Origin: Candidatus Omnitrophota bacterium
GTDB lineage: Bacteria > Omnitrophota > Omnitrophia > Omnitrophales > JACROU01
Reading direction: 5' to 3'
DNA: 64,000 nucleotides
Assembly: GCA_029261035.1 (NCBI GenBank)
Contig: JAJDCD010000023.1
Span: 365,126-429,125 of the forward strand
How positions within the stretch are numbered: position 1 is the stretch's first letter; every line of letters starts with the position of its first letter. The position numbers were made by a program, and so were the translations under genes. The notes under the pieces were generated by a model. The model was not told the DNA's origin. It was given only the letters and a program-made list of their open reading frames with translations, and did no database searches. This document shows, one piece after another, positions 32,544 through 58,876 of this stretch.

Positions 32544-32640
32544 GTATGCCAGGTCTAAAGACTCGGCACACTAGGTACCTGACTTAGGGGTGCCAAGTAA
32601 GAGTATGTGATTTGAATCAAACTACAATTATATGAGATGT
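32544..32640 (+). repeat. ~95-bp intergenic repeat, copy B
   Basis: About 85% identical to 6173-6271. It ends about 35 nt before the ArsM-like start codon. Confidence 0.7.
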
Positions 32641-32675
32641 TATTATTTTGTCCTAGGCTGGGAAAGGAAACAGAA

Positions 32676-33893: not shown

Positions 33894-33941
33894 TTCGCTT
33901 TTAGCTAATGGCTGATAGCTATAAAAAGTAGGAGGCTCCTT

Positions 33942-34904: not shown

Positions 34905-34945
34905 CCTCATAAAGTTAGAAAGTTGAATTTCATTTCTTTTTAATT

Positions 34946-35614
34946 ATGAAAATCTCCGTAATTATCCCAGTCTATAATGAAGCAAAATGCATTGAGGGAA
35001 CCTTAGAAAACCTTGTGTCTAATCATAACTTTTTTGAAGTTATTGTTGTTGATGCTGGAAGCGAAGATCAAACAGAATCTATTGCATCTCGTTTTGCTAA
35101 AGTGATTCAATCAAAAAAAGGAAGAGCAGAGCAAATGAACCGAGGCGCCGAACTGGCTTTGGGAGACGTGCTTCTTTTTTTACATGCAGACACTTTTTTG
35201 CCTCCTAATGCATTTGATTTAATCAAAAATACATTAGAAACAACCTCCTATGAGGCGGGGCGATTTTATATGCAGTTTGATGACCGTCGTTGGTCTCTAC
35301 GTTTTTTTTCTACCTATACGCGTTTGAGATGCTTCTCCTATGGAGATCAGGCCCTATTTATACGTAAGAAATTATTTAATCGAATGAAAGGCTTTAGCAC
35401 TCAGGTTCCTTTTGAGGATGTGGATTTTTTTAGCCGCCTTTCAAAGGGAAAGAAGTTTGCTGTTATTAAAGAGCCGGTTATTACTTCTGCAAGAAGATTT
35501 GTGTCTCAAGGGACTTGGACTCAAAAGTGGATTAATCTTCTGCTCATTTGTTTTTACTACTTTGGATTTGATATTACAGGGTTGAAACGGAAGTTATACC
35601 CTGATCTTAGGTGA
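34946..35614 (+). CDS. Family 2 glycosyltransferase ('rSAM/selenodomain-associated transferase 2' type)
   Basis: It has the N-terminal motif ISVIIPVYNEAKCIE and a DAGSEDQT (DxD) motif. Confidence 0.7.
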   Translation: MKISVIIPVYNEAKCIEGTLENLVSNHNFFEVIVVDAGSEDQTESIASRFAKVIQSKKGRAEQMNRGAELALGDVLLFLHADTFLPPNAFDLIKNTLETTSYEAGRFYMQFDDRRWSLRFFSTYTRLRCFSYGDQALFIRKKLFNRMKGFSTQVPFEDVDFFSRLSKGKKFAVIKEPVITSARRFVSQGTWTQKWINLLLICFYYFGFDITGLKRKLYPDLR

Positions 35615-35682
35615 CAGAAGTCGGAGGTTAGTAAAAAGAAGAAGCTGCCACCTCGCAATGACGGTTTATAATTAAAAGGAGT

Positions 35683-36465
35683 TTGATTTTGAAATTGATT
35701 GTTGTTCTTTCATCGCTATCTTTTCTATTTTTATTAGAGCATTATTGGCCTCTTTTTAAAGGAAGAAAACATCATTTCAAACACGCCTTTCCAAATTTGT
35801 TGATAGCGGTAACGAATGGAATTGTAATAGCGGTATTTTTTTCTGGATTAACTATAGCTGTGATTGAATGGGCAAAGGTTCATGAATTTGGTTTATTGCG
35901 TTTAGTTTCGTTGCCGACATGGATGAATTTTGTATTGGCATTTGTCCTCTTTGATCTTTGGATGTATTTGTGGCATGTGCTGTTACATAAAGGCCCTTTG
36001 TGGCGATTGCATCGCATGCATCATAGTGATACGGAAATGGACACGACAACAGCTCTGCGGTTTCACCCCATTGAAATTGTGATTTCAACAACGGCACGGT
36101 TAGCTGTATTACCTTTATTAGGTTTAGATTTAATTCATTTAGTTGTCTACGAAATGTGTCTTCAACCCGTCATTTTTTTTCACCATAGCAACTGGTCTCT
36201 TCCAGAGAAAATAGACTCCATTTTAAGGTTGTTCATTGTGACTCCGAATATGCACCGAGTACATCATTCTCAGATTCTTAAGGAAACTAATTCGAACTAT
36301 TCGAGCATTCTCTCTATTTGGGATCGGGTTTTTGGCTCATTTATCCATCGGAAAGATGTGCTTGCTATTGATTATGGAATAGGCTATTTTGAAGGAGCAA
36401 AATGGCAGAAATTCTGGGGAATGTTAAAAATACCTTTTGTGTTATCTTTAAAGAGGAGGCAGTAA
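35683..36465 (+). CDS. Fatty acid hydroxylase / sterol desaturase superfamily membrane enzyme
   Basis: It has the histidine boxes HVLLHK, HRMHHSD and HRVHHSQ in a multi-TM protein. It starts on TTG. Confidence 0.7.
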   Translation: MILKLIVVLSSLSFLFLLEHYWPLFKGRKHHFKHAFPNLLIAVTNGIVIAVFFSGLTIAVIEWAKVHEFGLLRLVSLPTWMNFVLAFVLFDLWMYLWHVLLHKGPLWRLHRMHHSDTEMDTTTALRFHPIEIVISTTARLAVLPLLGLDLIHLVVYEMCLQPVIFFHHSNWSLPEKIDSILRLFIVTPNMHRVHHSQILKETNSNYSSILSIWDRVFGSFIHRKDVLAIDYGIGYFEGAKWQKFWGMLKIPFVLSLKRRQ

Positions 36466-37442
36466 TGAGATATGGTTTGATTAGTATCATTATCATAGGA
36501 GGTTTCGTTTTTACTCTTAGTTTATTAAATAAGAATGTAGAAGCTCAACCTTTTTCTGCTGAGAGACAGTTTAGCGTTCAGTATTCGGCCACAATGAAGG
36601 CATTTCCTCAGACGGCGCAGTCCATCAAAGTTTGGGTTCCTCTAGCGAGCAGTCGAGATGGTCAAGAAATCATCAGCCGTAAGATTACAGTTCCTGTTCC
36701 TTATGAAATTAAAAAAGACTCTAAACTCAATAATGAAATTTTGTATTTTGAAGTTCCGGTAGATCAACTAGATTTAATCACAGTTGTTATTGACTATGAG
36801 GCTAAACTGAATCAAGAGTCGTATCGAAATTCTAGTTTAACAGAAGATTTAACCCCATTTCTGGATCCATCTAAGCTTATGGTTGTTAATTCTGAAGTTA
36901 AACAACGGGCTCAAGAAGCAACGCAAGGAAAAGGTGCTGTTCAGCAAAAAGCCAAAGGTATATTTGATTACGTGATTAATCATATGAGTTACGACAAAAG
37001 TGTTCCTGGTTATGGAAAAGGAGACACGATACGTGCTTGTGATATTGCTAAAGGGAATTGCACCGATTTCCATTCTTTATTTATATCGATGTCTTTAGCT
37101 GAGAACATCCCCGCTCGTTTTAAAATAGGGCTTCCAATTCCAGAAAGTATGGATGAAGGCAAAATAAAAGGTTACCACTGTTGGGCAGAGTATTATCACC
37201 CTGAAGAGGGTTGGCAGCAAGTAGATGCTTCTGAAGCAAAGAAGAACCCAGAAAGAAAAGAGACTTATTTTGGTGGGATAGATACGGGTAAGTTTTTAAT
37301 CAGTGTTGGGAGAGATGTGGAGCTTTCTCCTCCAAATGCTGGAGACCCTGTGAATATTTTCTTTTATCCTTACGTCGAAGTAGATGGAGAGCCTTTTAAC
37401 GAGATTAGCACAGAGTTCTATTTTAAAAACAAAACGGCTTAA
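36465..37442 (+). CDS. Secreted transglutaminase-like cysteine protease domain protein
   Basis: A signal peptide is present. The catalytic Cys region is GNCTDFHSLF, the His region is GYHCWAEYY and a downstream Asp follows. Its start overlaps the upstream stop (TAATG). Confidence 0.65.
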   Translation: MRYGLISIIIIGGFVFTLSLLNKNVEAQPFSAERQFSVQYSATMKAFPQTAQSIKVWVPLASSRDGQEIISRKITVPVPYEIKKDSKLNNEILYFEVPVDQLDLITVVIDYEAKLNQESYRNSSLTEDLTPFLDPSKLMVVNSEVKQRAQEATQGKGAVQQKAKGIFDYVINHMSYDKSVPGYGKGDTIRACDIAKGNCTDFHSLFISMSLAENIPARFKIGLPIPESMDEGKIKGYHCWAEYYHPEEGWQQVDASEAKKNPERKETYFGGIDTGKFLISVGRDVELSPPNAGDPVNIFFYPYVEVDGEPFNEISTEFYFKNKTA

Positions 37443-40589: not shown

Positions 40590-42083
40590 TTGATGAAGTT
40601 AGATTACTTATTTCCTCTTAAATCTTTCTATTCTTTTTTATGTCTTTTGCTGATTATTAGCTTTGTCTGTCCTTCTGCGCAGGCATCCATTCCTTCGTCT
40701 TTAGCAACAGTACAAGAAGAATATATTTCTAATTTTTCTCATAATAAAAAAGAAGTTATTATTATCCAAGATTTGCATACATCCACTCAGGTTCAGGAAA
40801 ATATTTCTGATGTGATTCGATACTATGTGAACGAGCAGAATGTCCAAGCAGTTGCTTATGAAGGAAATGAGGGAATCGTTGAAGTAGAAAAATTATTTTG
40901 GTTTTCTGATATACAACTTAAAAAAGAAGTGGCAGGGAGCCTTTTAAAAAAGCTTCGTCTCTCAGGCCCTGAATATGCGCGAGTGGTTAACAAGAAACCT
41001 TTTGAATTGCTGGGAATAGAAAATCATCAACTTTATCAAAAAAATATACAACAATTTAGAAAAGCACTCTACTTAAGGCAGGATGCAAAGAATAGAATTC
41101 TTTCTTTAAGAAAACAACTGTTACGCTCTTTGGCAGAGGTAGCTACTCCAGATGGAAAAAAGCTTCATAGGATGATGGAAAATTTTCATAATCAAAGGCT
41201 GAAGTTGACGGATTACCTATTGTCTTTAATGGGTTGGTTCGAAGGGGGGGATGCTTCTTTGTCCGATTTGCCTCATGTAAAGTTGTTGCTCGATTGGATT
41301 GAAGAGAATCGAGTTATAGATGCGGACCTATTAATCCAGGAATATGAAGAATTGCTCAAGGACCTTAAAATAGATAAGCGAGCGTTTCAATTAGAATCGA
41401 ATGAAGGGATGCAAAGCAAAGCATTTTGGAGCTATTTCGAGGCTCTCCAAAACGAAGTGAAGCAAAATTATCCTTATTTAAATCATTGGGTTTCTTATCA
41501 AATTAAAATTCAGAAAATGAGGTCTTGGGATTTGTTTGAGGAATTAGAGCTTCTAGAAAATAGAGTTACAAAGAAAGTTATGAAGAGGAAAGAGTTAAAG
41601 GTTGTACATGCTTTGAAATACTTGGATCAAATAAAGAGAATTGTTTCTTTGAAAGCAACTCGCGCTGATTGGGATTCTTATCTGAAGAACAAAAATGTAT
41701 TTCAAGAGAGTTACTTCAACAAAATCATTAATAAGGTTTTAGGTAGTAAACAAAAAAGTTCTCATTATGATGTCGCGCTAGAAGACTTGCTGAAGGCGGC
41801 GGCGGAGTTTTATTTAGTAGCACAAGAACGAGATGAAGTGATTACTCATAATTTATTTTCTGTTTTAAAAAGACACAATCGAGTTGTTCTGGTTGTGGGA
41901 GGGTTTCATACCGAAGGCCTTGTGCGTCAATTAAAGAAACAGAAAATTTCTTATTCCGTTCTTTCTCCTCATTATAAGGGACAGGATCTAAAAGCTGAAA
42001 AAAGGTATTTTGATTCTATGATGAATTTAGATTGGGATCATCAGAAAGATACCATTAGTCTTTTCTCTGCGGCATTCAACTAG
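40590..42083 (+). CDS. Secreted Tiki/TraB/GumN/ChaN-superfamily-like protein (paralog 1)
   Basis: A signal peptide is present. The N-terminal motifs VIIIQDLHTS…AYEGNEG compare with ChaN/Tiki GTxH…E(M)F. The C-terminal ERDEVI…VVLVVGGFHTEGLV…ISYSVL compares with the GumN/TraB R(N/D)xxM…VVGAxHLxG motif. It is paralogous to the N-terminal 450 aa of the 48763-52473 protein. Confidence 0.55.
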   Translation: MMKLDYLFPLKSFYSFLCLLLIISFVCPSAQASIPSSLATVQEEYISNFSHNKKEVIIIQDLHTSTQVQENISDVIRYYVNEQNVQAVAYEGNEGIVEVEKLFWFSDIQLKKEVAGSLLKKLRLSGPEYARVVNKKPFELLGIENHQLYQKNIQQFRKALYLRQDAKNRILSLRKQLLRSLAEVATPDGKKLHRMMENFHNQRLKLTDYLLSLMGWFEGGDASLSDLPHVKLLLDWIEENRVIDADLLIQEYEELLKDLKIDKRAFQLESNEGMQSKAFWSYFEALQNEVKQNYPYLNHWVSYQIKIQKMRSWDLFEELELLENRVTKKVMKRKELKVVHALKYLDQIKRIVSLKATRADWDSYLKNKNVFQESYFNKIINKVLGSKQKSSHYDVALEDLLKAAAEFYLVAQERDEVITHNLFSVLKRHNRVVLVVGGFHTEGLVRQLKKQKISYSVLSPHYKGQDLKAEKRYFDSMMNLDWDHQKDTISLFSAAFN

Positions 42084-42103
42084 AAAATCTCCACAACTAA
42101 AAA

Positions 42104-42919
42104 CTATTTTTCTTCAGCCGGTTCAATTTTCTCTTCGTTTTTGTGTGCTCTGTAGTATTTCATAAATTCTGGTAAAATTTGTTTGATGATATTAGAGGGG
42201 ATGGCAAAACTAATGCCTTGCGCTTCTTGGGCAACGATTTGATTGATGCCGATAAGCTTTCCTTCAATATTAACAAGAGCGCCTCCGCTGGAACCGGGAT
42301 TGATTGCCGCATCTGTTTGTATCACATTTTTTAAAATAACTTGCCCTTGAGGTGTGACTAAAGTGCGCTTGTTGGCACTAACGACTCCTGTTGTAATGGT
42401 ACTAGATAACCCATAAGGATTTCCTATTGCTATGACAGGCTCTCCAATGAGGAGCTGATCTGAATTTGCTAATTCAATTAATGTTAGTGGGAAAGGGGGC
42501 TCAATTTTTATAACTGCTAAATCATTAGGACGGTTGACGCCAATAAGCTTAGCAGGAAGTTTTTGTCCATTAAACAAAGTGACAAAAATGGTTGAGGCTG
42601 CTCTATCTACGACATGGGCATTCGTGAGAATCAGCCCTTCTTGATCAATGATAACTCCAGAGCCTAAGCTAGGGATTTTTTGTGCTTGAGCGGGTTGATT
42701 TTGATAGATTTTATCTAAGGCTTGTCCTTGATTTTTCCAGTAAGGATTTTTATTTAGAAGCACAACACGTTCTGTGCTGATGTTAACAACTGCAGGACTT
42801 ACTTTTTTGAAAATTCTAACGGCGGGTGTAACCCGTGCCGGATGGACATTTTGACTGTAGCCTGTAGAATCTATAACAAAAACAAAGAATAAAATAAAAA
42901 TGATTAAGTAGTGCTTCAT
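42104..42919 (-). CDS. Secreted trypsin-like serine protease (S1C/HtrA-like catalytic domain without PDZ)
   Basis: A signal peptide is present. The catalytic triad motifs TNAHVV, D-LAVIK and NPGSSGGAL are all found. Confidence 0.75.
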   Translation of the reverse strand: MKHYLIIFILFFVFVIDSTGYSQNVHPARVTPAVRIFKKVSPAVVNISTERVVLLNKNPYWKNQGQALDKIYQNQPAQAQKIPSLGSGVIIDQEGLILTNAHVVDRAASTIFVTLFNGQKLPAKLIGVNRPNDLAVIKIEPPFPLTLIELANSDQLLIGEPVIAIGNPYGLSSTITTGVVSANKRTLVTPQGQVILKNVIQTDAAINPGSSGGALVNIEGKLIGINQIVAQEAQGISFAIPSNIIKQILPEFMKYYRAHKNEEKIEPAEEK

Positions 42920-43011
42920 AATAAAATCCTTTTTAAGTATTGCTTATTAGACGAATCATCCTTGATTGTTATTCATCGTGTTCGTATGTCATTAATTCTA
43001 ACACATCTAGG

Positions 43012-44205
43012 CTAGCTTTCTTGCCAGGATACAACGTCGGTTTCACTTTTAGAACTATTTCCAGCATCTGCTAAGGCAGCGTCATAGTGAATGTTTGTAT
43101 TATCACTCGTTACTTTGTGGCCAACGACAGCTCCGAAGAAATCTAGGTTACCGTCGGAAGGGGAGCCGTTTAGGCTAATGCCATCTTGAAATTTCCCCGC
43201 CTCGGGAGCGTAGATTACTCCATAGAGAGACCCATCTCCTTGAAGCGTGACTTCATTATCACCTGATATTTTAATAATAAAATTAGCAGGCTTATTGTCA
43301 GGGGTGTTGACTGTATCTGCAACAATGCTGACATCACCTGTTACATAAAGTTCTACTGGCCCGGCGATATTGAGGGTGCTATTGCTTTCAATGGTAACTC
43401 CCGAAAATAAATGGGCACCACCGGCTAAAGGGCGTGTGGTTGAGGTTTCGACTAAAAGCTCACCGCTTGGAAGAAGGTTTTCTGGGATGCTAACAGGATC
43501 GAAAACACGTTGTGAGTTGTTGACTAAAGTGTTCCCTTGAATCGTGGCATTTCCCGAGACAGCAATGACTGAGTTAGGATCTCCTCCTGTACCGACAGTA
43601 ACATCCCCATCAACATTTGCATTGCCTGTAAGAGTGATGCTGTTCTGTGCAATTGTATTGCTGACAATGTGTCCTTCGGAACCGACATTGCCAGACTCTC
43701 CATATGCGCCTAGATCGGAATCGTAACTATCTGTGGTCGTATTTCCTTTTAATGTAATTGCTTTTTCAGCAAAAATGGGTTGGGCATATAATGCTTGTGG
43801 TGTAATTGTGATGTAGGATGTAACGGTTCTTTCTTGATAAGCATAAGATGCTGTTTGATTGTCGGGTGCGTATCCTGTAGAAATAATTTTTCTTACATTA
43901 GGGTTGCCGCCAGGGTCTGGTTGGATCACAGAGACAGAGTAAGAACCGTCTCCTAAGGACAGGGCATTTCCGGTGCCTGCGTAGTTGGCGTCTAAACTGA
44001 GCGCCGCAACAGCAGAGTCGACTCCTGCTTCAGCTAGATTGAAAGCAATGATGCGGTTTTGTTCCATTTCTATCTGCTTACGCTCACTCATGGAACTATT
44101 TAAGAGGGATGTGGAAATAGTAGCCATCACAATAATAAAGATCACAGAGGTAACCATAACAACCCCTTTGTTATTATTGAGATTTCTCAATTTAACTTCC
44201 ATCAT
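43012..44205 (-). CDS. Large pilin-like protein with PilX/TadG-like N-terminal hydrophobic segment and Gly/Asn/Thr-rich beta-repeat body
   Basis: The N-terminus NKG|VVMVTSVIFIIVMATIS resembles a PilX_N-type anchor. Many GNxTVxG repeats follow. I placed the start at the Met after the RBS GGAAAGGAAG. Confidence 0.5.
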   Translation of the reverse strand: MMEVKLRNLNNNKGVVMVTSVIFIIVMATISTSLLNSSMSERKQIEMEQNRIIAFNLAEAGVDSAVAALSLDANYAGTGNALSLGDGSYSVSVIQPDPGGNPNVRKIISTGYAPDNQTASYAYQERTVTSYITITPQALYAQPIFAEKAITLKGNTTTDSYDSDLGAYGESGNVGSEGHIVSNTIAQNSITLTGNANVDGDVTVGTGGDPNSVIAVSGNATIQGNTLVNNSQRVFDPVSIPENLLPSGELLVETSTTRPLAGGAHLFSGVTIESNSTLNIAGPVELYVTGDVSIVADTVNTPDNKPANFIIKISGDNEVTLQGDGSLYGVIYAPEAGKFQDGISLNGSPSDGNLDFFGAVVGHKVTSDNTNIHYDAALADAGNSSKSETDVVSWQES

Positions 44206-44307
44206 TACTTCCTTTCCCACATAAAGATACAACCTTTGCCCTTACTATTAATGATAAGGGGAAAAGAGATATTTTTCCATTAGATTATGTGGAATAGAAA
44301 GGTGGTT

Positions 44308-44883
44308 TTATGAGGTGTTTCTGAGATTGACTTCACCTGTGACAAAAATATTAACCGTTTGTCCTTTGAGCAGCGTGTTTGCCAGCCCCATATTTATGGT
44401 GATTTGAGAAGGGTTTCCAACCTGGTCCAGTTGAAATTGGAGTCGATTAGGATCTCCAGCATTATTATTTACATGGTTCGCTAAAACAATTTGAGAGGCG
44501 CTTCCGACTTGTGTGCGAAGGAGTTGTACATTATTAATGCCTCCGATGGAATAGGTGATTTGAGAAGACCAAGTAATTTCTCCTGTGTTAGAGTCAACCG
44601 TCTGTGGGATTTGAAAAGTGATATTATTTCCCTGGGCATTTACAGTAATTGTACTGGGTTGTGCTTGCCTTAGTTCTTTTAACATGCGATCAATAGATGA
44701 GCGCGCTTCTTGTTGCAGAGATAGTTTTTCACTGCCAATTTCTACTAATGTTTCTCCGGCTAAAAATATGGTCATAAGTAGAAGTCCTAAAATAGCAAAG
44801 ACGCCTAATGTGACCATCATCTCTAAAAGAGTCCAACCTTTTTTATTCCAAAAGATTCGTTTTTTTAGTGCCAGCATATTCAT
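44308..44883 (-). CDS. Prepilin-type N-terminal cleavage/methylation domain protein (minor pilin / pseudopilin)
   Basis: It has the class III signal KKG|WTLLEMMVTLGVFAILG, with Glu at +5. Confidence 0.7.
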   Translation of the reverse strand: MNMLALKKRIFWNKKGWTLLEMMVTLGVFAILGLLLMTIFLAGETLVEIGSEKLSLQQEARSSIDRMLKELRQAQPSTITVNAQGNNITFQIPQTVDSNTGEITWSSQITYSIGGINNVQLLRTQVGSASQIVLANHVNNNAGDPNRLQFQLDQVGNPSQITINMGLANTLLKGQTVNIFVTGEVNLRNTS

Positions 44884-44889
44884 ATCGAA

Positions 44890-45312
44890 TTACCTCTGTG
44901 TCACTAATGTTGTTAGTTGAGTCGTCATTGTTCTGTTATTTCCATTTTTTGTTGTTGAGTTCCAAGTCACAGAAATAGTTAGATTCAGTGGATTTTCTGT
45001 TGTAGACACATAATTAATTGTTACTTGTTCTCCAGGTAAGTTATTGAAACCCGCAATAGCTTGGTTATCCGGAAAAGTATTGATAACGTTTTCAGGAAAA
45101 AGCCCTATGGCACTTTGTTGTCTAACTTGCTCTATGGCTCTATGGGCGTCTTGTAAGGCGACAATTTCTTCGTAGCTCATTTCATTTGTTTGAGATATAT
45201 AGTTAACAGCAGAAATACTTAATGATAGAGCCACAAATAAAACAATGGCTGATATGAAGAACTCTAGCAACGAGAAACCTTTGGAATTTAAGATGTGACT
45301 TTTTTGTTTCAC
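44890..45312 (-). CDS. Prepilin-type pilin-like protein
   Basis: It has the signal KG|FSLLEFFISAIVLFVALSL, with Phe at +1 and Glu at +5. Confidence 0.7.
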   Translation of the reverse strand: MKQKSHILNSKGFSLLEFFISAIVLFVALSLSISAVNYISQTNEMSYEEIVALQDAHRAIEQVRQQSAIGLFPENVINTFPDNQAIAGFNNLPGEQVTINYVSTTENPLNLTISVTWNSTTKNGNNRTMTTQLTTLVTQR

Positions 45313-45494
45313 TCTCTTGCCCTCTTATAGTAATTCTAAATAGGTTGCGCGAGCCCTGTAAAAAAGTTTTAACAAATGACAAAAATTTTTACAACTCACT
45401 ATAAATTCTACACTTAGAGCATTGTATTCGCAAATGGTTCAAGGCATAATTATAGTAGGTGCATGGAGAATAACTGGGAAATGAGGCTGAAAAT

Positions 45495-45911
45495 ATGGAT
45501 ATCAAGCAAGGGGTTCAAGCGACAAAGGAAAAATTTAAAACAACCAAAGGGATCATGTTGGTAGAGCTTTTATTTAGTTTAGGAGTTCTAGTTGTGGTGA
45601 TGTTGGTCGCTTTTTATGTTCTGCTAGCCGCACACCATTTATCCGAAGAATCTAGGCAGCGATTACTTGCGCTTAATACTGCGAATACGGTTTTGGAAAT
45701 TGTGAAAGAAACACCTCTTCAGGGTGTGGGTGGAATCGTTCCGAATAATTTTTTGTCAGCTGATTTACCTAATGGAAATGTAGCTATTGTGACAAATCCA
45801 ATTAATTTAAATGGAGCGCAGATTGCGACGATTACGGTTAATGTAACTTGGGTTGGGCCGAGAGGGCGGGCTTTGAATCTGCAAATATCCACGATGAAGA
45901 GTGTTTTTTGA
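45495..45911 (+). CDS. Prepilin-type pseudopilin-like protein
   Basis: It has the signal TKG|IMLVELLFSLGVLVVVM, with Glu at +5. Confidence 0.65.
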   Translation: MDIKQGVQATKEKFKTTKGIMLVELLFSLGVLVVVMLVAFYVLLAAHHLSEESRQRLLALNTANTVLEIVKETPLQGVGGIVPNNFLSADLPNGNVAIVTNPINLNGAQIATITVNVTWVGPRGRALNLQISTMKSVF

Positions 45912-45921
45912 GGGGAATAAA

Positions 45922-46563
45922 ATGAATTTATTAAAAAAATGGAATAAAAAAGGTTTTACATTAGTAGAGTTATTAATGGTGGCAATTATTTTTCCACTTT
46001 TAATTCTAACAACTTATTCTGTTTTGGAAATGGCAGGGGTTATTTTTAGGAGTGATACGGTTTATTCTCAATTGAATCAGAGTTCGATGCAAGTGCTAAG
46101 ACATGTGACACGAGAAGTGTCTCAAACAAGTCCTTTAGCTTCTCCTAGCCATCTCAACATAACGTTAGACGGGCAAGGGCAATCGGTATTACGATTTCAA
46201 GTTCCTGTTGATTGGGATAATGACGGAGATGCCGTTCAAGGCACTAATAGCAATGTAGTCGAGTGGGGAGCTTACAATCAATCAGGAGATACTCAGAATG
46301 GAGTTTTGGACGGATGGGTTCAATATTCGGTTACGAATGGGCAATTGATTCGAGATGTTTTGACTTCAGGGCTTGTTGTAATTCAAGGAAATTCAAAAGT
46401 GATTTCAGATAATGTTACTTTATTCAGCACGATTCAAAATAATGATCGTATTCAACTTAATTTAACGGTTCAACGATCTGACACTGTAGGTCAAGGAGGA
46501 ACCGCCAGGCCGGTACAGCAAATTTTTAGTCAGGAAGTATTAATGAGAAATTCAGTAAATTAG
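45922..46563 (+). CDS. Prepilin-type pseudopilin-like protein
   Basis: It has the signal KKG|FTLVELLMVAII, with Phe at +1 and Glu at +5. GAGGGG precedes the ATG at 45922. Confidence 0.7.
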   Translation: MNLLKKWNKKGFTLVELLMVAIIFPLLILTTYSVLEMAGVIFRSDTVYSQLNQSSMQVLRHVTREVSQTSPLASPSHLNITLDGQGQSVLRFQVPVDWDNDGDAVQGTNSNVVEWGAYNQSGDTQNGVLDGWVQYSVTNGQLIRDVLTSGLVVIQGNSKVISDNVTLFSTIQNNDRIQLNLTVQRSDTVGQGGTARPVQQIFSQEVLMRNSVN

Positions 46564-46582
46564 TTTTGGTGAGGGGTTGTGA

Positions 46583-48028
46583 GTGATGGATAAAAAGAAG
46601 ATATTTCAAAATGACAATGGCTTTGTTCTGTTAGGAACTTATATGATGATTTTCTTTATATTAACACTCTCAAGTATCGCGTTAGGGAAATCCATATATG
46701 AGGTCCGTCATGTGGAAAGAGAAATGAATCGTTTAAGCAGTCACTTTGCTGCTGAGGCAGCCCTTCAAAGTGCTTTGTCTCAAATTGGGCAAAATGCATA
46801 TACGGGTTTTATTAATACTGCAGCTATTAATGTTGCTAATTTTCAATCTTCTTCAGGGATTGCCGTGGGAAGTTTTACCGCTAATTTAAGTTATCCGAAT
46901 CAAGCAGACTGGGTGGTTGTTACGGCGCAAGGGACAGTGAATGGAGAGACGCGTAATTTAGAAGGCCGTGTTTTTTTAGATTCTAATTTATCTAAATACT
47001 TAGTCTACACAACAGGTAACTTTTCTTCTGGAACAAATGCTCAGTATGGATACCATGATGGAGTCAACCCTGAAGGGGTTTCTTCGAATGAAAACGACAG
47101 AGCCGCGCTCTATTTCAACGGAGACTACAATGCTTCGGGAACGAATGTGCAAATTTATGGGGATGTTCATACACAAGGAAATATTACAGGAACAGGCTCG
47201 TCTCAGATTCATGGCGATGGTTATGCAAGCGATTTTGAATTAGATCAAAATGGGAATGTTGTGGATGACGGTATTAATGGAGCTATTGTAGTTACAGATG
47301 GATTTACAGATGATTCCGATCGCGATAATGATGGCAGTATAACGAGTATGGACGCTCCTGATCATCATGATTTAACAACTCTTGGCGAAGATGATGCACA
47401 CGCTATTGAACTCTTAACAGGGATTGATAACAATTTTTATCAGACCAATAATGACACTCCTTATTTTGCAGGAGTGAGTGCGGAAACACGTTTTGTCGAG
47501 TTTCAGGCGAGTGGTACTTCAACGCAAATTGTGGAATATTCTGCGGACTGGGTTGCTGTAATTAATAATTATACATTACCTGAAAGTGCCATTGTGTATG
47601 TGAACGGAGATGTTCACTTGCGCGGAGAGATTGAAGGTCGTGTGAGTGTTGTTTCTACCGATGACATTTACTTTGATGGCAACTTAACTTATACAGGCAA
47701 TAATTCTTTTGCAGACGCTACACACTCTACCGCTTTTTTGGCGCAAGATAAAATTTACATACGTCCTGTTGATGTTGAGGTTAGTGGCATTTTGTATGCT
47801 CAAAATGAAGATGGGGGCACCGCGTTGAATGGAGATTATGATTTAGCAGGAGTTTATAATCCTGATTCCAAAGCTCGTTTGAGGCTTTTCGGAAATAGAA
47901 TTCTTGAAGGCTCATCTAATACGGGAGTGTATGACGACCGTGTTTATGGATATGATGAAAATTTAAAATATTATAGACCGCCAGGCATTCCTGTTCAGCC
48001 TGAGTTGAGAATGGTGCGAGAAATTTAG
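46583..48028 (+). CDS. Large minor-pilin/PilX-like protein (481 aa)
   Basis: The N-terminus NG|FVLLGTYMMIFFILTLSSIALG is a hydrophobic anchor. A large Gly/Asn/Asp-rich body follows. Confidence 0.5.
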   Translation: MMDKKKIFQNDNGFVLLGTYMMIFFILTLSSIALGKSIYEVRHVEREMNRLSSHFAAEAALQSALSQIGQNAYTGFINTAAINVANFQSSSGIAVGSFTANLSYPNQADWVVVTAQGTVNGETRNLEGRVFLDSNLSKYLVYTTGNFSSGTNAQYGYHDGVNPEGVSSNENDRAALYFNGDYNASGTNVQIYGDVHTQGNITGTGSSQIHGDGYASDFELDQNGNVVDDGINGAIVVTDGFTDDSDRDNDGSITSMDAPDHHDLTTLGEDDAHAIELLTGIDNNFYQTNNDTPYFAGVSAETRFVEFQASGTSTQIVEYSADWVAVINNYTLPESAIVYVNGDVHLRGEIEGRVSVVSTDDIYFDGNLTYTGNNSFADATHSTAFLAQDKIYIRPVDVEVSGILYAQNEDGGTALNGDYDLAGVYNPDSKARLRLFGNRILEGSSNTGVYDDRVYGYDENLKYYRPPGIPVQPELRMVREI

Positions 48029-48039
48029 GGGGGAGTAAA

Positions 48040-48327
48040 ATGAATCGATATTTGTTAGTCATTGTCTTGCTTGTAGGAGTCGCAACTCTTTATTTGTATG
48101 GTCCTATGAAACCTCAACCCAAAGAAGTTGTGCTTAAAAAAACAGTTGTAGTTGAAGAATCTGGCCCCTTGCCAAAATTAGAGCAAAATTATAAATATGT
48201 GAGTCAATCAGAAGAAAAGAAAAAGAAGACTATTTTTGAGAGAGAAGAAGCGTTTGTTTTTAAAGAAGACCCTGACCGTCTGCAACCTATCCCAAAAGAG
48301 TACAAGAATATTCCTGTGGTTGATTAA
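48040..48327 (+). CDS. Small membrane-anchored protein (hypothetical)
   Basis: It has an N-terminal TM helix and a Lys/Glu-rich tail. It is co-directional and tightly spaced within the pilin block. Confidence 0.4.
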   Translation: MNRYLLVIVLLVGVATLYLYGPMKPQPKEVVLKKTVVVEESGPLPKLEQNYKYVSQSEEKKKKTIFEREEAFVFKEDPDRLQPIPKEYKNIPVVD

Positions 48328-48762
48328 GCAAAAAGAAAATGAGTTATGTTATGGTGAGGCAGCTCTTTCGCACCTGTCTTGTCATATGGTATTATTTTAT
48401 TAGAGGTGTTGACCGGATGAAATTACATTTGCCGTGGCATATAAATGGGCTTCAGGTGGTGTTTATGGTTCTTTGGTCCGTGCTTATGATTTACCTTGTT
48501 GTAGCATTATTTGGGCTTATGGTTTATGACTTTACAGTGAGATAATATTTAAGAACCCCCGCCATTTAGCGTTTTACTTTTTCTTTTTGTCTACTCATAG
48601 TGTCTCTCCACAAAAAATTGTGGATAACCTCATATGGTATGTTTTCCCCAAAAAACAAAGTTTTTTTAAAAGATATATAAACTTCATTGTATGAGAGACG
48701 ATAACGAAATCAATATCTCTAGAAGTGTAATTTTCTAGGATGAATTTTGCAAGGAGGCAAAA

Positions 48763-51700
48763 TTGAAGAAGACCCTGGTACTTAGTTTAGTTATTTCTAT
48801 AGGGTTACAAGGCTTTGCTCCTCAAGGAGGAGGGGCAGAACCTATTTCTGTAACACCTTTAAATCAAGATGCGATTCGTGTGCCCGCACACATGGGAAAA
48901 ATATCTAGAACCTTTCTTTTTTCTGAAGAATTTCAGAACTCCAATACAAGTAAATCTGTTTTTGTTTCTACACAAAAGAAAAAACCAATGGTTATTTTAA
49001 TTGCCGATGCGCATGCAAGTATTGGAATTCAAAGTAAAATTGCAGAAGCGATGGAATATTTTTCTAAAGAGTATGGATTGAAGGATGTTTATGTTGAAGG
49101 TGCTGATCAAAAAATCGACCTTGATTTCTATCGGTCTTTTCCGGATAAAGAAGTGCTTAGAAAAGTAGCCCGCATGTGGTTTTATCAAAGAAAACTTTCA
49201 GGCCCAGAATACAAAGCTATTATTTCAGAAAGAGAATTTAACCTGCAAGGAATCGAAGAACTCGCTTTATACGAACAGAACAAAGAAGCAGCTCTTTGGA
49301 CTTTAAAACATAGAAAAGAATTAATTTCAAAAATTAAAAAAATGGCAGAAGACTTGTCCGAACTTCAAGAAAAATATTATTCAAAAAAAATGATTCAGTT
49401 TGAAAAAGAGTTGAAGAGAATAAAAAAAGGATTTTCTCCTAGCGATACGATGATTCAGCAATTTTTGTTTCAATTAAACAAACCTCTGACGGAAGAAAGT
49501 CAGCCGGGAGAAGTGATAAAAAATTGGTTTCGCTTTTTAAGAACATTGAATCCTGGTTTTGTTGAAACGAAGGAAGAAAGTATCTTAAATTACTATTCTG
49601 GATTGCTGGAGCTTTTAAATCAGCTTGTTTCTTTAGAGTTAACCCGCAATAGTTGGCAAGCGCTTGAAGGGGCCTTGCTGCAATTAGATGAAATCGAATT
49701 TCTCTCTAAGGAGTTTACACGAGATGCATCTTCATTGATTGTTTCTATTGAAGATTTTGTGAGACAAATCAGAGAGCCTTTGCGTTTTTATCGTTTAGCA
49801 GAAACTAGAGACGAAATGTTATTCAAAAATTTAAAAGCCTTATTAAAGCCAGGGGAAATGTCTTGGGTTATTGTCGGTGGATTCCATTTAGACGGTATGA
49901 TGCAGCGTATGAAAAAAGATCGAATTCCTTATCTTGTTTTTACCCCTTCCTTGAAGCAGGTTGAAAAGAACTCGGTTAAGTTTTATCGAAATCTTTTAGG
50001 AGAAGAGAATAAGCAAAATATTTTTGCAACTCTTCAATTGTATTCTCGTCTATTGCGTCCGGATACGCGCCTTGAATTTATCAAGCAGTTGATTACTTCA
50101 ACATCAAATCGTTTTCCAGACATTCGATCATGGTTATGGAGAAATGGCTTCTCATCCCTGGGAGAACCTCTAGATCAAGAATTGGCACGTAGATTGTTTC
50201 AAGCAGAAATTGTTGGCCCTGAAGAAACTGAGTTGGTATTTCGAGATGTGAATCAAATGATGTTTGAGGCGGCTAGTTTGGGTAATAATAATGCGGATGA
50301 TTGGATGGGTGATTCGAGAGATGATTATTGGAATGAAATGGAAGTTCCCAAGTGGGAAGCATCCCCAAATCCATTAGATGAGAAGGACTCTGATGTTGTA
50401 GATAGGAGTGAAACTGTATCTTTATCATCATCTTCTTCTAAAATTCAATCTAGAATTAGAGCTTCGAGCCCCATGCTTATTTCTCGAGGGATTCAACAAG
50501 AATTAAATAAGATGCAAGCAGTGGAAGAAAAGAAACTATTCCTGAAGGAATTGGTCCAAGTTTATGCTTCGTTGACAGACTCTCATGAGCGCTACAAATT
50601 AAAAGAAGCATTTTCGATGATTCTTGATGTCGAGTTGCTTCATGATTGGACTTCTCTTTTTGGCATTGATGATATTCAACTTCGATCTGCTGCTATTGTT
50701 CTTTACGATAGCGTTTTATCTAAAAAGAAAACTCGGCTCTCAACAAGAGAGGATTCTTATATTTCTATTTATATTGGATTAAGAGGTTTGGCAGGGGATA
50801 GCAAAGTGGATGAAGGTTTGCTTTCTATTTTAGCGCCTTCTCTTTTAAGTGAGAATGCCTATACCCGAAGTCTGGTATGGGATGTTTTTCGAAACTCTGG
50901 AACTTCTTCAGAAAGAATCGATCTAGTCATTGGAGACTTACAGGCATTTTATAAAAGACCGGCTGAAAAGAAAAAAATCAGTGCGATTCAACAATTTTTG
51001 ATTTTAAAAGGAGAGCAACAAAAAGAACCTCTCAGCCGTAGATTAAAAGCTGTGATTGATTTAGGTGTGTTAATGACACAACAACCCTTATTAAGAGACT
51101 TGCAAACAAGTGCGGATGACTTCTCAAGACAGTTTGTTTTGTGGGAAGCGGCACGCGAACCCAACTTAGATTCAGAACTGATTGGGATTGTCTTCCCGGG
51201 TATTTCGGATCCGGATCCTATGATTCGATATTTAGCGTTAAAAATTTTGATTCGTAATCAAATTTCTTCGGAAGAATTTTTGGAGTATTTAAATCAAGCG
51301 TTGGTAACTTACCAAGAGTATAAACAAATTACGCTCCTTCTCAACCGCCTTAAAAAAGAATTAGAACCTATTTGGGAACGCTTACTACAAGTTTACTCCT
51401 TGGTAGATGCAAATGTGTTTTTATCTCTTGTACAGCAATTTGAAAGTGTTGTAAGAGATGCTTCCGTGATTGAATCAAAGGTTGAAATCAGCGATCTTAA
51501 GGCTCTAAACCAAAAACAAACAGCACTTAGGGCTATTCAGCTTTTAATTAAAAAAGCTTCTGAAGGAACACGTCCTGCACGGTTTGTTTTGCCCGGCGAC
51601 AGTGAGCTGTTAGAATCAGCACAAATCAAACGTATTAAACAAAGTGCTTTGCGTCTTGTAAAAAGTGAAGAAGGCACAGAAGTTTTTTATGCATCTACTA

Positions 51701-52473
51701 TTTATATTTTGTCTGTGGCGGCGAGTTTAGGAGAGTTGCAACCGGATACGATTGTGTTAGAAAATTTTAGAAAAGCACAACAAAGAGTAGCCCCTGTTAT
51801 GCGCGCTTTATCTGCAACTGATCCTGGTTGGAATACGTATATGCGTCATCGAGACAAAATTTTATCTGGAATTCATTCTCGATTTTCTCAAAGGAAGGGA
51901 AATGTGATTTTGTCTTTGGGAGAGATTCCTCAAGATCCCGAAAATCTACTGACCTTATTAAAAGAGATTGAAGGAAACGTTCGCCTTGTTGTTGTTCGAT
52001 CTGAAGGAGAAGAAAGTTTAGTGAAACAATATTCTAAAAAGAATTCATTATCCACACAAAATCACGCCGACTTGTTAAGGCTGTTAGGGGATACGCGTGT
52101 TGTTGTTGAGCAAGAGGGTAGTTTCTCGAATGTAGCTCAAGATTTGTTGGGTACTTATCTTAAAGAAACGGGCATTGCTCTTGTTTCTAGAGATGAATAT
52201 ATTGATCAATCGCTGATTAATTTAGAGAGAGTTGTTTTATACCAAGGAAAAAAATTAACACAATTAGGACTGGATGAATATATGGAGCTCTTAAAGTTGG
52301 TGAGCTATGTTGGTCTTTCCAAAAACGAAACAGAACTTTTAGTTTCGGTTCAAGATTTCGCGCCATTTGGTTTTTTTCAATCAGGTCCTTTAACTATTGT
52401 GGAACTTCAGAACTTCTTAGCCGCACTTGATTTCGATCAAGACCTCGGCCGCATCTTCCAAACCGCTGCGTAG
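48763..52473 (+). CDS. Secreted 1236-aa protein: N-terminal Tiki/TraB/GumN/ChaN-like domain (paralog 2) plus a ~780-aa uncharacterised alpha-helical C-terminal region
   Basis: It starts on TTG with AAGGAGG upstream and has a signal peptide. The N-terminal motifs are VILIADAHAS…YVEGADQ…KLSGPEYKAI and the C-terminal motif is TRDEMLF…WVIVGGFHLDGMM…IPYLVF, all aligned with the 40590-42083 protein. The remaining C-terminal region is Leu-rich and helical. Confidence 0.55.
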   Translation: MKKTLVLSLVISIGLQGFAPQGGGAEPISVTPLNQDAIRVPAHMGKISRTFLFSEEFQNSNTSKSVFVSTQKKKPMVILIADAHASIGIQSKIAEAMEYFSKEYGLKDVYVEGADQKIDLDFYRSFPDKEVLRKVARMWFYQRKLSGPEYKAIISEREFNLQGIEELALYEQNKEAALWTLKHRKELISKIKKMAEDLSELQEKYYSKKMIQFEKELKRIKKGFSPSDTMIQQFLFQLNKPLTEESQPGEVIKNWFRFLRTLNPGFVETKEESILNYYSGLLELLNQLVSLELTRNSWQALEGALLQLDEIEFLSKEFTRDASSLIVSIEDFVRQIREPLRFYRLAETRDEMLFKNLKALLKPGEMSWVIVGGFHLDGMMQRMKKDRIPYLVFTPSLKQVEKNSVKFYRNLLGEENKQNIFATLQLYSRLLRPDTRLEFIKQLITSTSNRFPDIRSWLWRNGFSSLGEPLDQELARRLFQAEIVGPEETELVFRDVNQMMFEAASLGNNNADDWMGDSRDDYWNEMEVPKWEASPNPLDEKDSDVVDRSETVSLSSSSSKIQSRIRASSPMLISRGIQQELNKMQAVEEKKLFLKELVQVYASLTDSHERYKLKEAFSMILDVELLHDWTSLFGIDDIQLRSAAIVLYDSVLSKKKTRLSTREDSYISIYIGLRGLAGDSKVDEGLLSILAPSLLSENAYTRSLVWDVFRNSGTSSERIDLVIGDLQAFYKRPAEKKKISAIQQFLILKGEQQKEPLSRRLKAVIDLGVLMTQQPLLRDLQTSADDFSRQFVLWEAAREPNLDSELIGIVFPGISDPDPMIRYLALKILIRNQISSEEFLEYLNQALVTYQEYKQITLLLNRLKKELEPIWERLLQVYSLVDANVFLSLVQQFESVVRDASVIESKVEISDLKALNQKQTALRAIQLLIKKASEGTRPARFVLPGDSELLESAQIKRIKQSALRLVKSEEGTEVFYASTIYILSVAASLGELQPDTIVLENFRKAQQRVAPVMRALSATDPGWNTYMRHRDKILSGIHSRFSQRKGNVILSLGEIPQDPENLLTLLKEIEGNVRLVVVRSEGEESLVKQYSKKNSLSTQNHADLLRLLGDTRVVVEQEGSFSNVAQDLLGTYLKETGIALVSRDEYIDQSLINLERVVLYQGKKLTQLGLDEYMELLKLVSYVGLSKNETELLVSVQDFAPFGFFQSGPLTIVELQNFLAALDFDQDLGRIFQTAA

Positions 52474-55610: not shown

Positions 55611-55925
55611 ATGAACACATCATCCTTTAAAGATTTTATTTTAGATCAACTCAACTCTCTTTCAGAGCTCCGTTGCCAGCGTATGTTTGGTGGCTATGCT
55701 CTTTATAGCCAGGATTTATTTTTTGCTATTCTTGCTCGAGAAAGACTCTATTTCAAAACAAACTCAGAGACCAAAGCGGATTACGTGGATAAGGGGATGG
55801 CCCCCTTTAAAGCCAGCGCAAAACAGACCTTAAAAAACTACTACGAAGTGCCTGTCGAGGTTATAGAGGACTCCGAGGAACTATGCTCCTGGGCCCAAAA
55901 GGCACTCCTAGTAGCCTCTGAATAA
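55611..55925 (+). CDS. TfoX N-terminal domain protein (Sxy/TfoX-like competence-regulator N-domain only)
   Basis: The LRCQRMFGGYALY motif is characteristic of the TfoX_N domain. The protein is 104 aa. Confidence 0.65.
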   Translation: MNTSSFKDFILDQLNSLSELRCQRMFGGYALYSQDLFFAILARERLYFKTNSETKADYVDKGMAPFKASAKQTLKNYYEVPVEVIEDSEELCSWAQKALLVASE

Positions 55926-56015: not shown

Positions 56016-56091
56016 CTTTGGGGGAATTCCCTGGTTTTCTCCTGATTCAAACGTGCTATAATGCGTGCCTCAAATTAATAAGGAGAAGCGC

Positions 56092-57804
56092 GTGTCCTAT
56101 CTTGTATTTGCTCGAAAATTTAGACCTCAGATTTTAGGAGACTTGGTGGGTCAAGAACATGTGGCCACCACCCTCAAGAACGCCCTCAAGCAAGGTCGTA
56201 TTGCTCAGAGTTTTCTTTTTAGCGGAACCCGAGGTGTCGGAAAAACTTCTGCAGCTCGTATCCTAGCCAAAATGTTAAATTGCGAAAAAGCAAAACCCGG
56301 TGATGAACCTTGCGGTAAATGTAATAGTTGTGAGGAAATCACAAAAGGGAACAGTTTAGATGTATTAGAAATTGATGGTGCTTCCAATCGAGGTATTGAC
56401 GAGATTCGTAACTTACGGGACAACGTAAAGTTTAAACCGATGGCGGGTGAGTACAAAGTCTATATCATTGACGAGGTTCACATGCTTACAGGAGAAGCCT
56501 TTAATGCGCTTCTTAAAACATTAGAAGAGCCACCAAGCCACGTAAAATTTATTTTTGCAACCACCGAAGCACATAAAGTTCCTCTAACGATTCTTTCTCG
56601 ATGCCAACGATTTCATTTTCGTCGTATCGCCATCACCGAAATCGTAAAGACCTTAGAAAAGATTGGAAAAGAAGAAAAAATTAAGATGGACTCCGAAGCT
56701 CTTTTTCTTGTCGCAAAACAAGCCGAAGGCAGTATGCGGGACGCAGAGAGTTTGCTGGAGCAAATGGTTAGCTTTTGCGGAAAGAGTTTAAAGAAGGAAG
56801 ATGTCGAACAAGTTCTTGGGCTTTCTTCCACAACGGTTCTTTATGCGTTTGTGGAAGCCTTAGCAGAGAAAAACGAAGCAAAGATTTTAGATTTAATCGA
56901 AGAGCTAGTTCTTCATGGTCAAGACTTAGCTAACTTTTCTAGCTTGCTTCTAGAAACATTTCGAGCCTTGTTATTGTCTCAGGTTCTTGAGAAGCCAGAG
57001 AAGAAACTCGAGATGAGCGAAGAAGAATTGGCTTCAGTACAAAAATACAAAACACAATTTTCTAAACAAGACTTATTTATGATTTTGGATGTTATCCAGG
57101 AACTGAACTGGAAAATAAAACGCTCTAACACCCCGCGTATTTTGCTCGAAATTACCTTACTAGAATTAGCAGCAAGAGAATCGATGGAATCTGTCTCAGA
57201 ATTAATTCAAGAAGTGAAAGCGCTTAGAGGGGGCGGAGTTAGTGTTAGTCCAGCAACTCCATCTAGAGCCCAAGCGTCTCCTGTAGTAAAAAAAAACGCT
57301 GAACCCGTAAACAAAGCATCATTTCAAGCACCTAAACCAACTACAACCTCATATCCGGAGACACCTGTCGTGCCACAATCTCAATCTGAACCCGAACCAC
57401 AGCCAATCAAAAAACCAGCAGCAAAGAAAAGTGCTTCCGAAATAGGCTTCGACCAAATCGAATTAGCATGGCAGAGAATTCTAGAAGCAGTAAAGGCGCG
57501 CAAGATGTCTGCAGGCAGTTTCTTGGCAGAAGGGGAGCCGATGGAACTAGAAGGAGACCTTCTTGTTATTGGTTTTCCAACCGAATTCCGTTTTCACAAA
57601 GATGCATTAGACAAGCCGGAAAATAAAAGTTTAGTTGAAGAGATTGTTCAAAGTGCTACCGGAGCCACATTAAGAGTTAAACTTGTAATGACGACCGAAA
57701 ACAAAATACAAAAAGATGTGCACCAAACCAAAGAAGAGGCATCCGGTATTATTTCAGATGCGATGGAAATCTTTGAGGGTCGTATTTTAGAGAAGGATGC
57801 GTAA
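56092..57804 (+). CDS. dnaX: DNA polymerase III subunits gamma/tau
   Basis: The N-terminus ARKFRPQ…GQEHV is followed by a Walker A (GTRGVGKTS), a Zn module (CGKCNSCEE) and an SRC sensor (SRCQRF). I moved the start to the GTG after AAGGAGAAG. Confidence 0.85.
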   Translation: MSYLVFARKFRPQILGDLVGQEHVATTLKNALKQGRIAQSFLFSGTRGVGKTSAARILAKMLNCEKAKPGDEPCGKCNSCEEITKGNSLDVLEIDGASNRGIDEIRNLRDNVKFKPMAGEYKVYIIDEVHMLTGEAFNALLKTLEEPPSHVKFIFATTEAHKVPLTILSRCQRFHFRRIAITEIVKTLEKIGKEEKIKMDSEALFLVAKQAEGSMRDAESLLEQMVSFCGKSLKKEDVEQVLGLSSTTVLYAFVEALAEKNEAKILDLIEELVLHGQDLANFSSLLLETFRALLLSQVLEKPEKKLEMSEEELASVQKYKTQFSKQDLFMILDVIQELNWKIKRSNTPRILLEITLLELAARESMESVSELIQEVKALRGGGVSVSPATPSRAQASPVVKKNAEPVNKASFQAPKPTTTSYPETPVVPQSQSEPEPQPIKKPAAKKSASEIGFDQIELAWQRILEAVKARKMSAGSFLAEGEPMELEGDLLVIGFPTEFRFHKDALDKPENKSLVEEIVQSATGATLRVKLVMTTENKIQKDVHQTKEEASGIISDAMEIFEGRILEKDA

Positions 57805-58800: not shown

Positions 58801-58876
58801 TCCCTGGTAGCTCAGTTGGTAGAGCAAGCGACTGTTAATCGCTTTGTCGCAGGTTCGAGTCCTGCCCGGGGAGCCA
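58801..58876 (+). tRNA. tRNA-Asn (anticodon GUU)
   Basis: The cloverleaf folds by hand. The acceptor is UCCCUGG/CCGGGGA, the anticodon loop is CUGUUAA and the T-arm is GCAGG-TTCGAGT-CCTGC. GCCA is encoded at the 3' end. Confidence 0.85.

Follow-up and report, generated by a model that had tools for sequence, protein, structure and literature searches.

Within a 64-kb window of Candidatus Omnitrophota DNA (the window being the whole stretch analyzed, 64,000 nucleotides), positions 40590-52473 carry two paralogous genes, whose products we call protein A and protein B, on either side of a block of pilin-like genes. The reading that we favor, and hold to be somewhat probable, is that A and B are exported His/Glu hydrolases and that their position beside the pilin genes is a lineage-specific arrangement. 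Judged from sequence profiles and a structural model, the two represent a family that is new and strongly divergent within the Tiki/TraB/ChaN/Ere superfamily and that no curated model recognizes. The fold and the chemistry are known; what is new is the family itself, with its size, its large helical insertion and its domain's fixed place at the front of long Omnitrophota-type proteins. The window, with a GC content of ~38%, is a segment of bacterial chromosome, and because it includes lpxD, the organism is diderm. Every named top homolog of its DnaX comes from Candidatus Omnitrophota or Omnitrophica.

Paralogy and fold of proteins A and B

BLASTP aligned A with B at 24% identity over A53-463 and B74-398 (E=3e-19), and the paralogous stretch of B comprises its first ~470 amino acids (aa). 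A previous sequence-only reading of this DNA had recognized the two as homologs from four pairs of motifs, all of which fall inside that alignment. When a family hidden Markov model (HMM) was run on the six-frame translation of the whole window, only two copies were found, A and B. Both proteins start with a Sec-type signal peptide, as read from the sequence: the N-terminus of A is MKLDYLFPLKSFYSFLCLLLIISFVCPSAQA/S, and that of B is MKKTLVLSLVISIGLQGFA.... The C-terminal ~760 aa of B matched nothing in Pfam, NCBIfam or PDB sequence searches.

An alignment of 28 family sequences, also used to count invariant columns and for the Pfam checks, yielded an AlphaFold2 model of A with a predicted local distance difference test score (pLDDT) of 82.5 and a predicted template-modeling score of 0.78; a single-sequence AlphaFold run gave a pLDDT of 36 and was unusable. 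In the model, an alpha/beta core (aa ~39-145 and ~397-478) is interrupted by an all-helical insertion of ~250 residues (aa ~146-396). The core has three layers with a parallel sheet and can be superposed on solved members of the superfamily. The values in the comparison with PDB structures were 10.1 for a TraB-family protein (8bqs_DQ), 9.9 and 8.5 for two Bcr135/136-type proteins (2rad and 2qgm, respectively), 8.9 for ChaN (2g5g), 8.5 for EreC (6xcq), 8.2 for HopBA1 (5t09), 7.7 for RRSP (5w6l), and 7.2 for PMT (2ebf).

At the level of sequence, the C-terminal core of A matched the NCBIfam model TIGR00261 (traB) with E values from 7e-8 to 2e-6 (27-32 bits); at 2e-6, A410-452 was aligned to model positions 176-218 with 27.1 bits, against a cut-off of 178. 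Pfam returned no match for A or B. Among the 28 family members, Cofac_haem_bdg (PF04187) matched four (best E 5e-5) and TraB_PrgY_gumN (PF01963) matched two, all below threshold, and PDB sequence searches with profiles of A plus B, of the family, and of the C-terminal core detected no superfamily member. Since the curated cut-offs of PF01963, PF04187 and TIGR00261 are not reached, we place A and B in a new family within the superfamily, not in an existing one. The assignment of the pair to the Tiki/TraB/GumN/ChaN fold in the sequence-only reading thus agrees with the TIGR00261 match of A, the sub-threshold ChaN matches of other members, and an invariant catalytic set (described below). As to the expected HMM and structural similarity, the fold held, through the superposable model and TIGR00261; a match at curated cut-offs and a significant Foldseek match did not appear.

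The helical insertion gave matches of its own. With the family profile at ~131-257 (A aa ~146-300), there were weak PDB matches to centrin EF-hand pairs (E=0.004), and PAH_ZNF598 matched 9 of the 28 members. Both were set aside as helical or compositional resemblance; they may reflect a repeated helix-loop-helix unit, or composition only.

Predicted active site and activity

Residues D61, H63, E91, R414, and H440 of A are conserved in 100% of 150 family members and are among the 15 invariant columns of the 28-sequence alignment; the equivalent residues of B are given in Table 1. By mutagenesis, the essential residues of RRSP are E3900, H3902, E3930, R4001, and H4030 (PMC6254334). Their order is that found in A and B, with an identical His-to-Glu spacing of 28 and an Arg-to-His spacing of 26 versus 29; the first acidic residue is Asp in A and B versus Glu in RRSP. 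The catalytic set has been lost from PMT, which belongs to the superfamily but is not an enzyme (PMC6254334). A and B very probably retain the predicted hydrolase chemistry.

From these features, we infer export, catalytic activity and a class of substrate. Sec would export A and B to the periplasm, and possibly further. There, as predicted His/Glu hydrolases (peptidases or esterases), they would use the His63-Glu91 pair, aided by Asp61, His440, and Arg414, to activate water, the role proposed for the His-Glu pair of RRSP and the Ere enzymes (PMC6254334), and the activated water would hydrolyze a peptide or ester linkage, either in the periplasm or extracellularly. A would act as a head-only enzyme, and B would couple the head to its ~760-aa C-terminal region, presumably a binding or scaffolding part.

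A different view is that the pair, like Campylobacter ChaN, are non-catalytic binders of heme or another cofactor. ChaN, a heme-binding lipoprotein (PF04187, PDB 2g5g), is also an exported envelope protein, and its Pfam model is the one that most often matched among curated models, in the 4 of 28 members noted above. However, A and B themselves do not match PF04187, and TraB and Ere-type enzymes score equal to or above ChaN. The complete His/acid/Arg set, invariant in 150 members and lost in non-enzymatic PMT (PMC6254334), argues for an enzyme, and we regard a purely binding role as very improbable.

Other known systems share part of this pattern. The TraB/PrgY/GumN/Tiki family (PF01963, TIGR00261) provides the only curated sequence model that A matches, over R414-H440, and has the same motif order (beta-strand-xH, E, R(D/N), GxxH). 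A differs from it in the 27-32 bits scored against 178, in the ~250-aa helical insertion that splits its core, and in having Asp, not Glu, as the first acidic residue; further, whereas those are stand-alone membrane proteins, the A/B domain forms the N-terminal head of long Omnitrophota proteins. In the erythromycin esterase family, too, the two core halves are separated by a helical lid. These enzymes (EreC, 6xcq; the Bacillus cereus Bcr135/136-type 'succinoglycan biosynthesis proteins', 2rad and 2qgm) also have a His-Glu pair proposed to activate water (PMC6254334), but there is no match to A or B at the sequence level, and Ere proteins are cytoplasmic resistance enzymes of ~400 aa, unlike A and B with their signal peptides and the 760-aa extension of B. 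Finally, RRSP and PMT C1-C2 of the MARTX and Pasteurella toxins (5w6l, 2ebf) offer a TIKI-fold domain within a very large, secreted, multi-domain protein, and RRSP has the same combination of two His, two acidic residues and Arg. RRSP is, in contrast, an internal effector domain with a membrane-localization lobe, whereas the A/B-family domain is always N-terminal, and the two have no detectable sequence similarity.

A family of N-terminal heads on long proteins

Omnitrophota are ultra-small, apparently host-dependent bacteria with extremely long proteins of unknown function. An exhaustive search of cluster representatives (50% identity), with a profile of A plus the head of B as the query, identified 7,744 representatives at E<=1e-3, 6,170 at <=1e-10, and 779 at <=1e-30. 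The family is mostly from Omnitrophota, and its members are named "hypothetical protein" in the source databases; genome matches also occur in Elusimicrobiota, Auribacterota, a metagenome-assembled genome (MAG) of the PVC group, and a Planctomycetia MAG. A word-indexed protein search with A alone, or with the 28-sequence profile, returned A itself only.

We compiled architecture statistics from the best 150 of the 7,744 representatives. The domain, ~450 aa long, starts at or before aa 180 in all 150. Sixteen are head-only proteins like A; the other 134 continue past the domain, with C-terminal extensions whose median length is 1,332 aa and total protein lengths of up to 7,832 aa, and a hydrophobic segment lies ahead of the domain in 111 of the 143 members with a complete N-terminus. 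The extensions of 15 long members contain transaldolase, phosphoglucomutase, PEP-utiliser, ROK kinase, CofD, UDPGP, SLT, metallophosphatase, and DnaJ domains, matching the long "multi-enzyme" class of Omnitrophota proteins that has been described (10.64898/2026.06.07.730766). Genes with a Tiki-like head are often clustered, in tandem or close to one another (two each in loci L002, L010, and L016, and three in L003, within 10-20 kb), pointing to local expansion of the gene family.

In their account of giant Omnitrophota proteins, West-Roberts et al. (2023) stated that N-terminal regions as a rule contain no domain that can be recognized, other than C39 and S8 peptidases (bioRxiv 10.1101/2023.11.21.568195). 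A head resembling TraB, Tiki, ChaN or Ere is mentioned neither there nor in the description of the multi-enzyme class (10.64898/2026.06.07.730766), and a search of the literature for Omnitrophota together with TraB, erythromycin esterase or GumN brought up no relevant work. As a tentative proposal, for which we would claim only a small probability, the Tiki/TraB-fold head might be common to thousands of long multi-enzyme proteins in Omnitrophota and neighboring phyla and might join C39 and S8 as a third type of peptidase domain at the N-terminus, acting in cis or in trans after export to free the protein from its N-terminal anchor or to cut the polypeptide into functional parts. Protein A would then be a free-standing version working in trans, B would be a version with short cargo, and adjacency to pilus-tip genes would reflect the shared cell-contact apparatus of a host-dependent bacterium. 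A probable hydrolase fold on several thousand protein clusters would offer a testable handle on the maturation, anchoring and release of long proteins. Many of the listed members are long proteins of 1,000-7,800 aa, and the family would be a very large new branch of Tiki/TraB/Ere proteins, overlooked by current domain libraries.

Neighborhood of the paralogs in other genomes

Scans with a motif of the A clade gave 13 family loci in GTDB genomes and 12 in JGI metagenomes, supplemented by exact look-ups of close homologs; loci with the pilin block were approached from the opposite direction, via the DnaX homologs of relatives. The block consists of two triads of prepilin-like genes. The whole bracket recurred in one genome only, represented by JGI contig Ga0315338_1000003 (L014/L018). 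The order there is transglutaminase, a 134-aa gene, DUF255 thioredoxin, A (424 aa), HtrA, PilX1, two pilins, two further pilins, PilX2, a small protein, B (1452 aa; P0006), DUF4126, dnaX, and recR. Collinearity extends to the housekeeping genes on both sides, so we attribute this second bracket to shared ancestry and do not count it as independent evidence of coupling.

Between the window and this syntenic genome, identity is 39% for A, 32% for B, and 30% for sm95, the small protein, compared with 55-66% for the pilins and flanking genes. The A ortholog is 73 aa shorter, the loss lying within the helical insertion, and P0006 is the only one of the best 150 family members that the C-terminal region of B resembles. 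The fast divergence of A and B is typical of exposed or conflict-related proteins, to judge by sequence identity.

Elsewhere, the paralogs and the pilin block were found apart. None of the ~21 other independent family loci has a pilin or HtrA homolog, with one exception: L004 contains a single prepilin gene, whose distance to a 2,663-aa family member is 1.8 kb. Conversely, the double-triad block is kept beside dnaX-recR in four Omnitrophota genomes (window 43012-48327; L014 4252-9727; L029 3056-9375; L031 1-5686), including GCA_973787085.1 (L029/L030; DnaX 63% identical) and GCA_016214265.1 (L031; DnaX 74% identical over a partial protein), and these last two loci have neither a Tiki-family member nor an HtrA homolog. 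In L029 and L031, there is an extra PilX1 paralog and the triads are convergent; in the window and in L014, the triads are divergent. GCA_016214265.1 does encode an A-like gene (L001), on a different contig from the pilin block and among unrelated neighbors. A HEAT-repeat protein at the position in L031 equivalent to that of B was considered as a relative of the C-terminal region of B and was rejected as not homologous.

Thus, Tiki-like genes flank the block in two of four block genomes, and pilins flank the family in ~2 of 23 loci; what is conserved as a unit is the pilin block, with A, B, and the HtrA-like gene as its variable neighbors. The bracketing by A and B is a lineage-specific arrangement and not a conserved functional module. 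In the closest A-clade loci, the gene downstream is of the Exo_endo_phos type instead of a pilin gene.

That Exo_endo_phos (endonuclease/exonuclease/phosphatase) gene encodes ~255 aa and accompanies A's nearest long relatives (1,118-1,375 aa), at L001 6746-7513, L015 6376-7143, and L016 6737-7501. It is directly downstream in L001 and L015, follows a VWA-domain gene in L016, and is absent from the window.

To the sequence-only reading, the region had looked like a self-contained cell-surface module in which the Tiki-like pair could be proteases that process the pseudopilins or partners that bind a cofactor. The physical bracketing in the window is repeated in a relative, to this extent bearing out the expected adjacency to pilins, and the ends of secreted proteins or peptides are where Tiki and TraB/PrgY act (textbook knowledge). 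But the linkage is not conserved beyond L014/L018: L029 and L031 have the block without a Tiki-like gene, the ~21 family loci without pilins leave the family overwhelmingly unlinked to them, and most members carry unrelated enzyme domains. Nor is A co-transcribed with the pilins; it is convergent with the minus-strand operon, the stop codons being 20 bp apart. Cleavage of the prepilin leader is a chemistry of the cytoplasmic face, performed by PilD-type aspartic peptidases; because the catalytic domain of A and B would be periplasmic, they could not perform this step. We consider the module improbable.

The main alternative is a link by secretion, not processing, with A, B, and the HtrA-like protease being exoproteins exported by the type II secretion system (T2SS)-like or type IV pilus (T4P) system of the triads. 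T2SS substrates are often encoded beside gsp genes. All three candidates have Sec-type signal peptides, the HtrA-like gene ends the operon of the first triad, and B, the only one of the two paralogs co-directional with a pilin operon, lies downstream of the second triad after a gap of 435 bp. This arrangement is kept in L014, and the fast evolution of A and B is as expected of proteins exposed outside the cell. Giant Omnitrophota genes have, moreover, been reported near T2SS/T4P-like sets (bioRxiv 10.1101/2023.11.21.568195; 10.64898/2026.06.07.730766). The blocks of L029 and L031, which lack A, B, and HtrA, speak against such a relationship, as do the ~21 family loci devoid of pilin genes and the window itself, which has no secretin, ATPase or platform gene; on balance, we regard export by this route as unlikely.

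We prefer to see A and B as exported hydrolases in a lineage-specific position, and several points weigh against that preference. Foldseek comparison of the A model with the PDB gave no significant match (best E 0.36; ChaN, at rank 5, had the highest probability, and EreC was at rank 23), probably because the ~250-aa helical insertion dominates. No curated model of Pfam or NCBIfam reaches its threshold for A or B. The bracket has been kept between genomes whose DnaX proteins are only 68% identical, with B on the same strand after the plus-strand triad, and some functional coupling of the bracket is conceivable. Finally, the neighborhood sample is modest (~23 family loci and 4 pilin-block loci) and includes many short contigs. 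The comparison nonetheless cautions against making too much of a conspicuous gene order: as a neighbor of the block, the Tiki-like pair is interchangeable.

The pilin block and the HtrA-like protease

A motif scan of the whole window identified exactly six prepilin-type N-termini, four with G/xxxxE and two, on large proteins, without Glu5. The leader and hydrophobic helix of a class III signal peptide were present in all six, and Glu at +5 in four. Five prepilins and two giant PilX-like proteins had been counted in the sequence-only reading; the two large proteins stand, and the prepilins number four, for a total of six and not seven. N_methyl/TIGR02532 matches were obtained for two of the pilin-like proteins. 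Weak NCBIfam matches to gspJ (E 8e-4 to 5e-2), ComGE/GF, PilV, and TIGR02599 (Verru_Chthon cassette protein C) were all below cut-offs.

The six genes form two paralogous triads, each encoding two pilins, of ~140 and ~200 aa, and a larger protein of 400-480 aa that has a prepilin-like helix and no Glu5. Cross-matches link pil140 to pil138 (6e-6, between orthologs), pil191 to pil220, and PilX1 to PilX2 (1.7e-8). PilX2 is 65% identical to its L014 ortholog; PilX1 has weak bactofilin/solenoid matches, and orthologs of the large members carry PF23981 (DUF7305). By these sequence features, the triads resemble minor-pilin or pseudopilin tip complexes, a role that we infer for them. Like GspI-GspJ-GspK, FimU/PilV-PilW-PilX, ComGE-GG, and the Verru_Chthon sets, they combine a small, a mid-sized and a large member, the large one lacking Glu5 as in GspK, and they are encoded apart from assembly genes; they differ from minor-pilin tip sets in their sub-cut-off matches, the duplicated block, the beta-solenoid/DUF7305 regions of the large members, and the lack of a major pilin.

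Pfam scans covering essentially every open reading frame (ORF) that reaches 120 aa in the 64-kb window revealed no pilus ATPase, platform protein, prepilin peptidase or secretin, in agreement with the sequence-only reading, and none was present in the flanks of L014, L029 or L031. Minor-pilin operons commonly lie apart from pilB/C/D/Q, and because of this, the missing assembly genes are unremarkable. The triads would serve a type IV pilus or a T2SS-like machine whose genes lie elsewhere; type IVa pili are encoded by most Omnitrophota (PMC10066038).

The protease gene between A and the first triad was described correctly as HtrA-like and PDZ-less: it has a Trypsin_2 domain, and neither Pfam nor NCBIfam detected a PDZ domain. 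TIGR02037 matched at 2e-70 over its positions 4-230 of 434 only, and the His, Asp and Ser motifs are visible. Ending at 271 aa, the protein is not a canonical HtrA; it is 58% identical to its L014 ortholog.

Gene layout and surrounding genes

Features of the region are listed in Table 1. A scan for promoters and terminators gave nothing informative, and an ORF of 68 aa at 48339-48545 was rejected as a gene, no such gene being called in the syntenic genome.

Table 1. Coordinates of the bracketed region and of dnaX in the window (slashes in motifs follow the prepilin-type Gly).
Feature	Position	Strand	Description
Protein A	40590-42083	+	497 aa (NCBI start ATG 40593, 496 aa); signal peptide and predicted Tiki/TraB/EreA-fold domain; 'head-only' form
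Predicted catalytic site of A, first half	40770-40868	+	D61-L-H63 on beta strand; E91 in YEGN, 28 residues past His
Predicted catalytic site of A, second half	41826-41909	+	R414 in ERDE, H440 in GGFH; TraB-like 'R(D/N)xxM ... GxxH' segment
HtrA/DegP-like serine protease	42104-42919	-	271 aa, secreted; last gene of minus-strand operon; Trypsin_2 E=8e-32
PilX1	43012-44232	-	GspK/PilX-like large minor pilin, 406 aa; NKG/VVMVT, no Glu5; beta-solenoid-like C-terminal region; PilX_N 1.4e-3
pil191	44308-44883	-	GspJ/PilW-sized prepilin; KKG/WTLLE; N_methyl, TIGR02532, weak gspJ
pil140	44890-45312	-	Small GspI/PilV-sized prepilin; SKG/FSLLE; first gene of minus-strand triad
pil138	45495-45911	+	Small prepilin; TKG/IMLVE; pil140 paralog; first gene of plus-strand triad
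pil220	45901-46563	+	Prepilin; KKG/FTLVE; pil191 paralog
PilX2	46583-48028	+	GspK/PilX-like large minor pilin, 481 aa; DNG/FVLLG, no Glu5; PilX1 paralog
sm95	48040-48327	+	95 aa; one N-terminal hydrophobic helix (anchor); after PilX2 in 4/4 block genomes
Protein B	48763-52473	+	1236 aa; signal peptide; Tiki-like head aa ~74-470 (D82, H84, E112, R349, H375); ~760-aa C-terminal region
DnaX	56065-57804		

About 3 kb downstream of B, a small protein with a TfoX_N domain is encoded at 55611-55925; the TfoX_N family includes regulators of competence and of type IV pili. Farther on, tRNA-Asn (58801-58876) precedes a large serine recombinase (58835-60520, minus strand), an ImmA/IrrE M78 peptidase paired with an XRE helix-turn-helix protein (60614-61515, minus strand), and a Replic_Relax protein (62954-63649). 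The stretch from 58801 to 64000 looks like a mobile element integrated at tRNA-Asn. Resolvase genes are found slightly downstream of recR in L029.

Upstream of the bracket, at 32637-37442, an S-adenosylmethionine (SAM) methyltransferase is paired with a radical-SAM/DUF3641 protein, a pairing that recalls the ArsM/ArsS arsenosugar genes; past the pair lie genes for a GT2 glycosyltransferase, a fatty-acid hydroxylase, and a transglutaminase-like protein.

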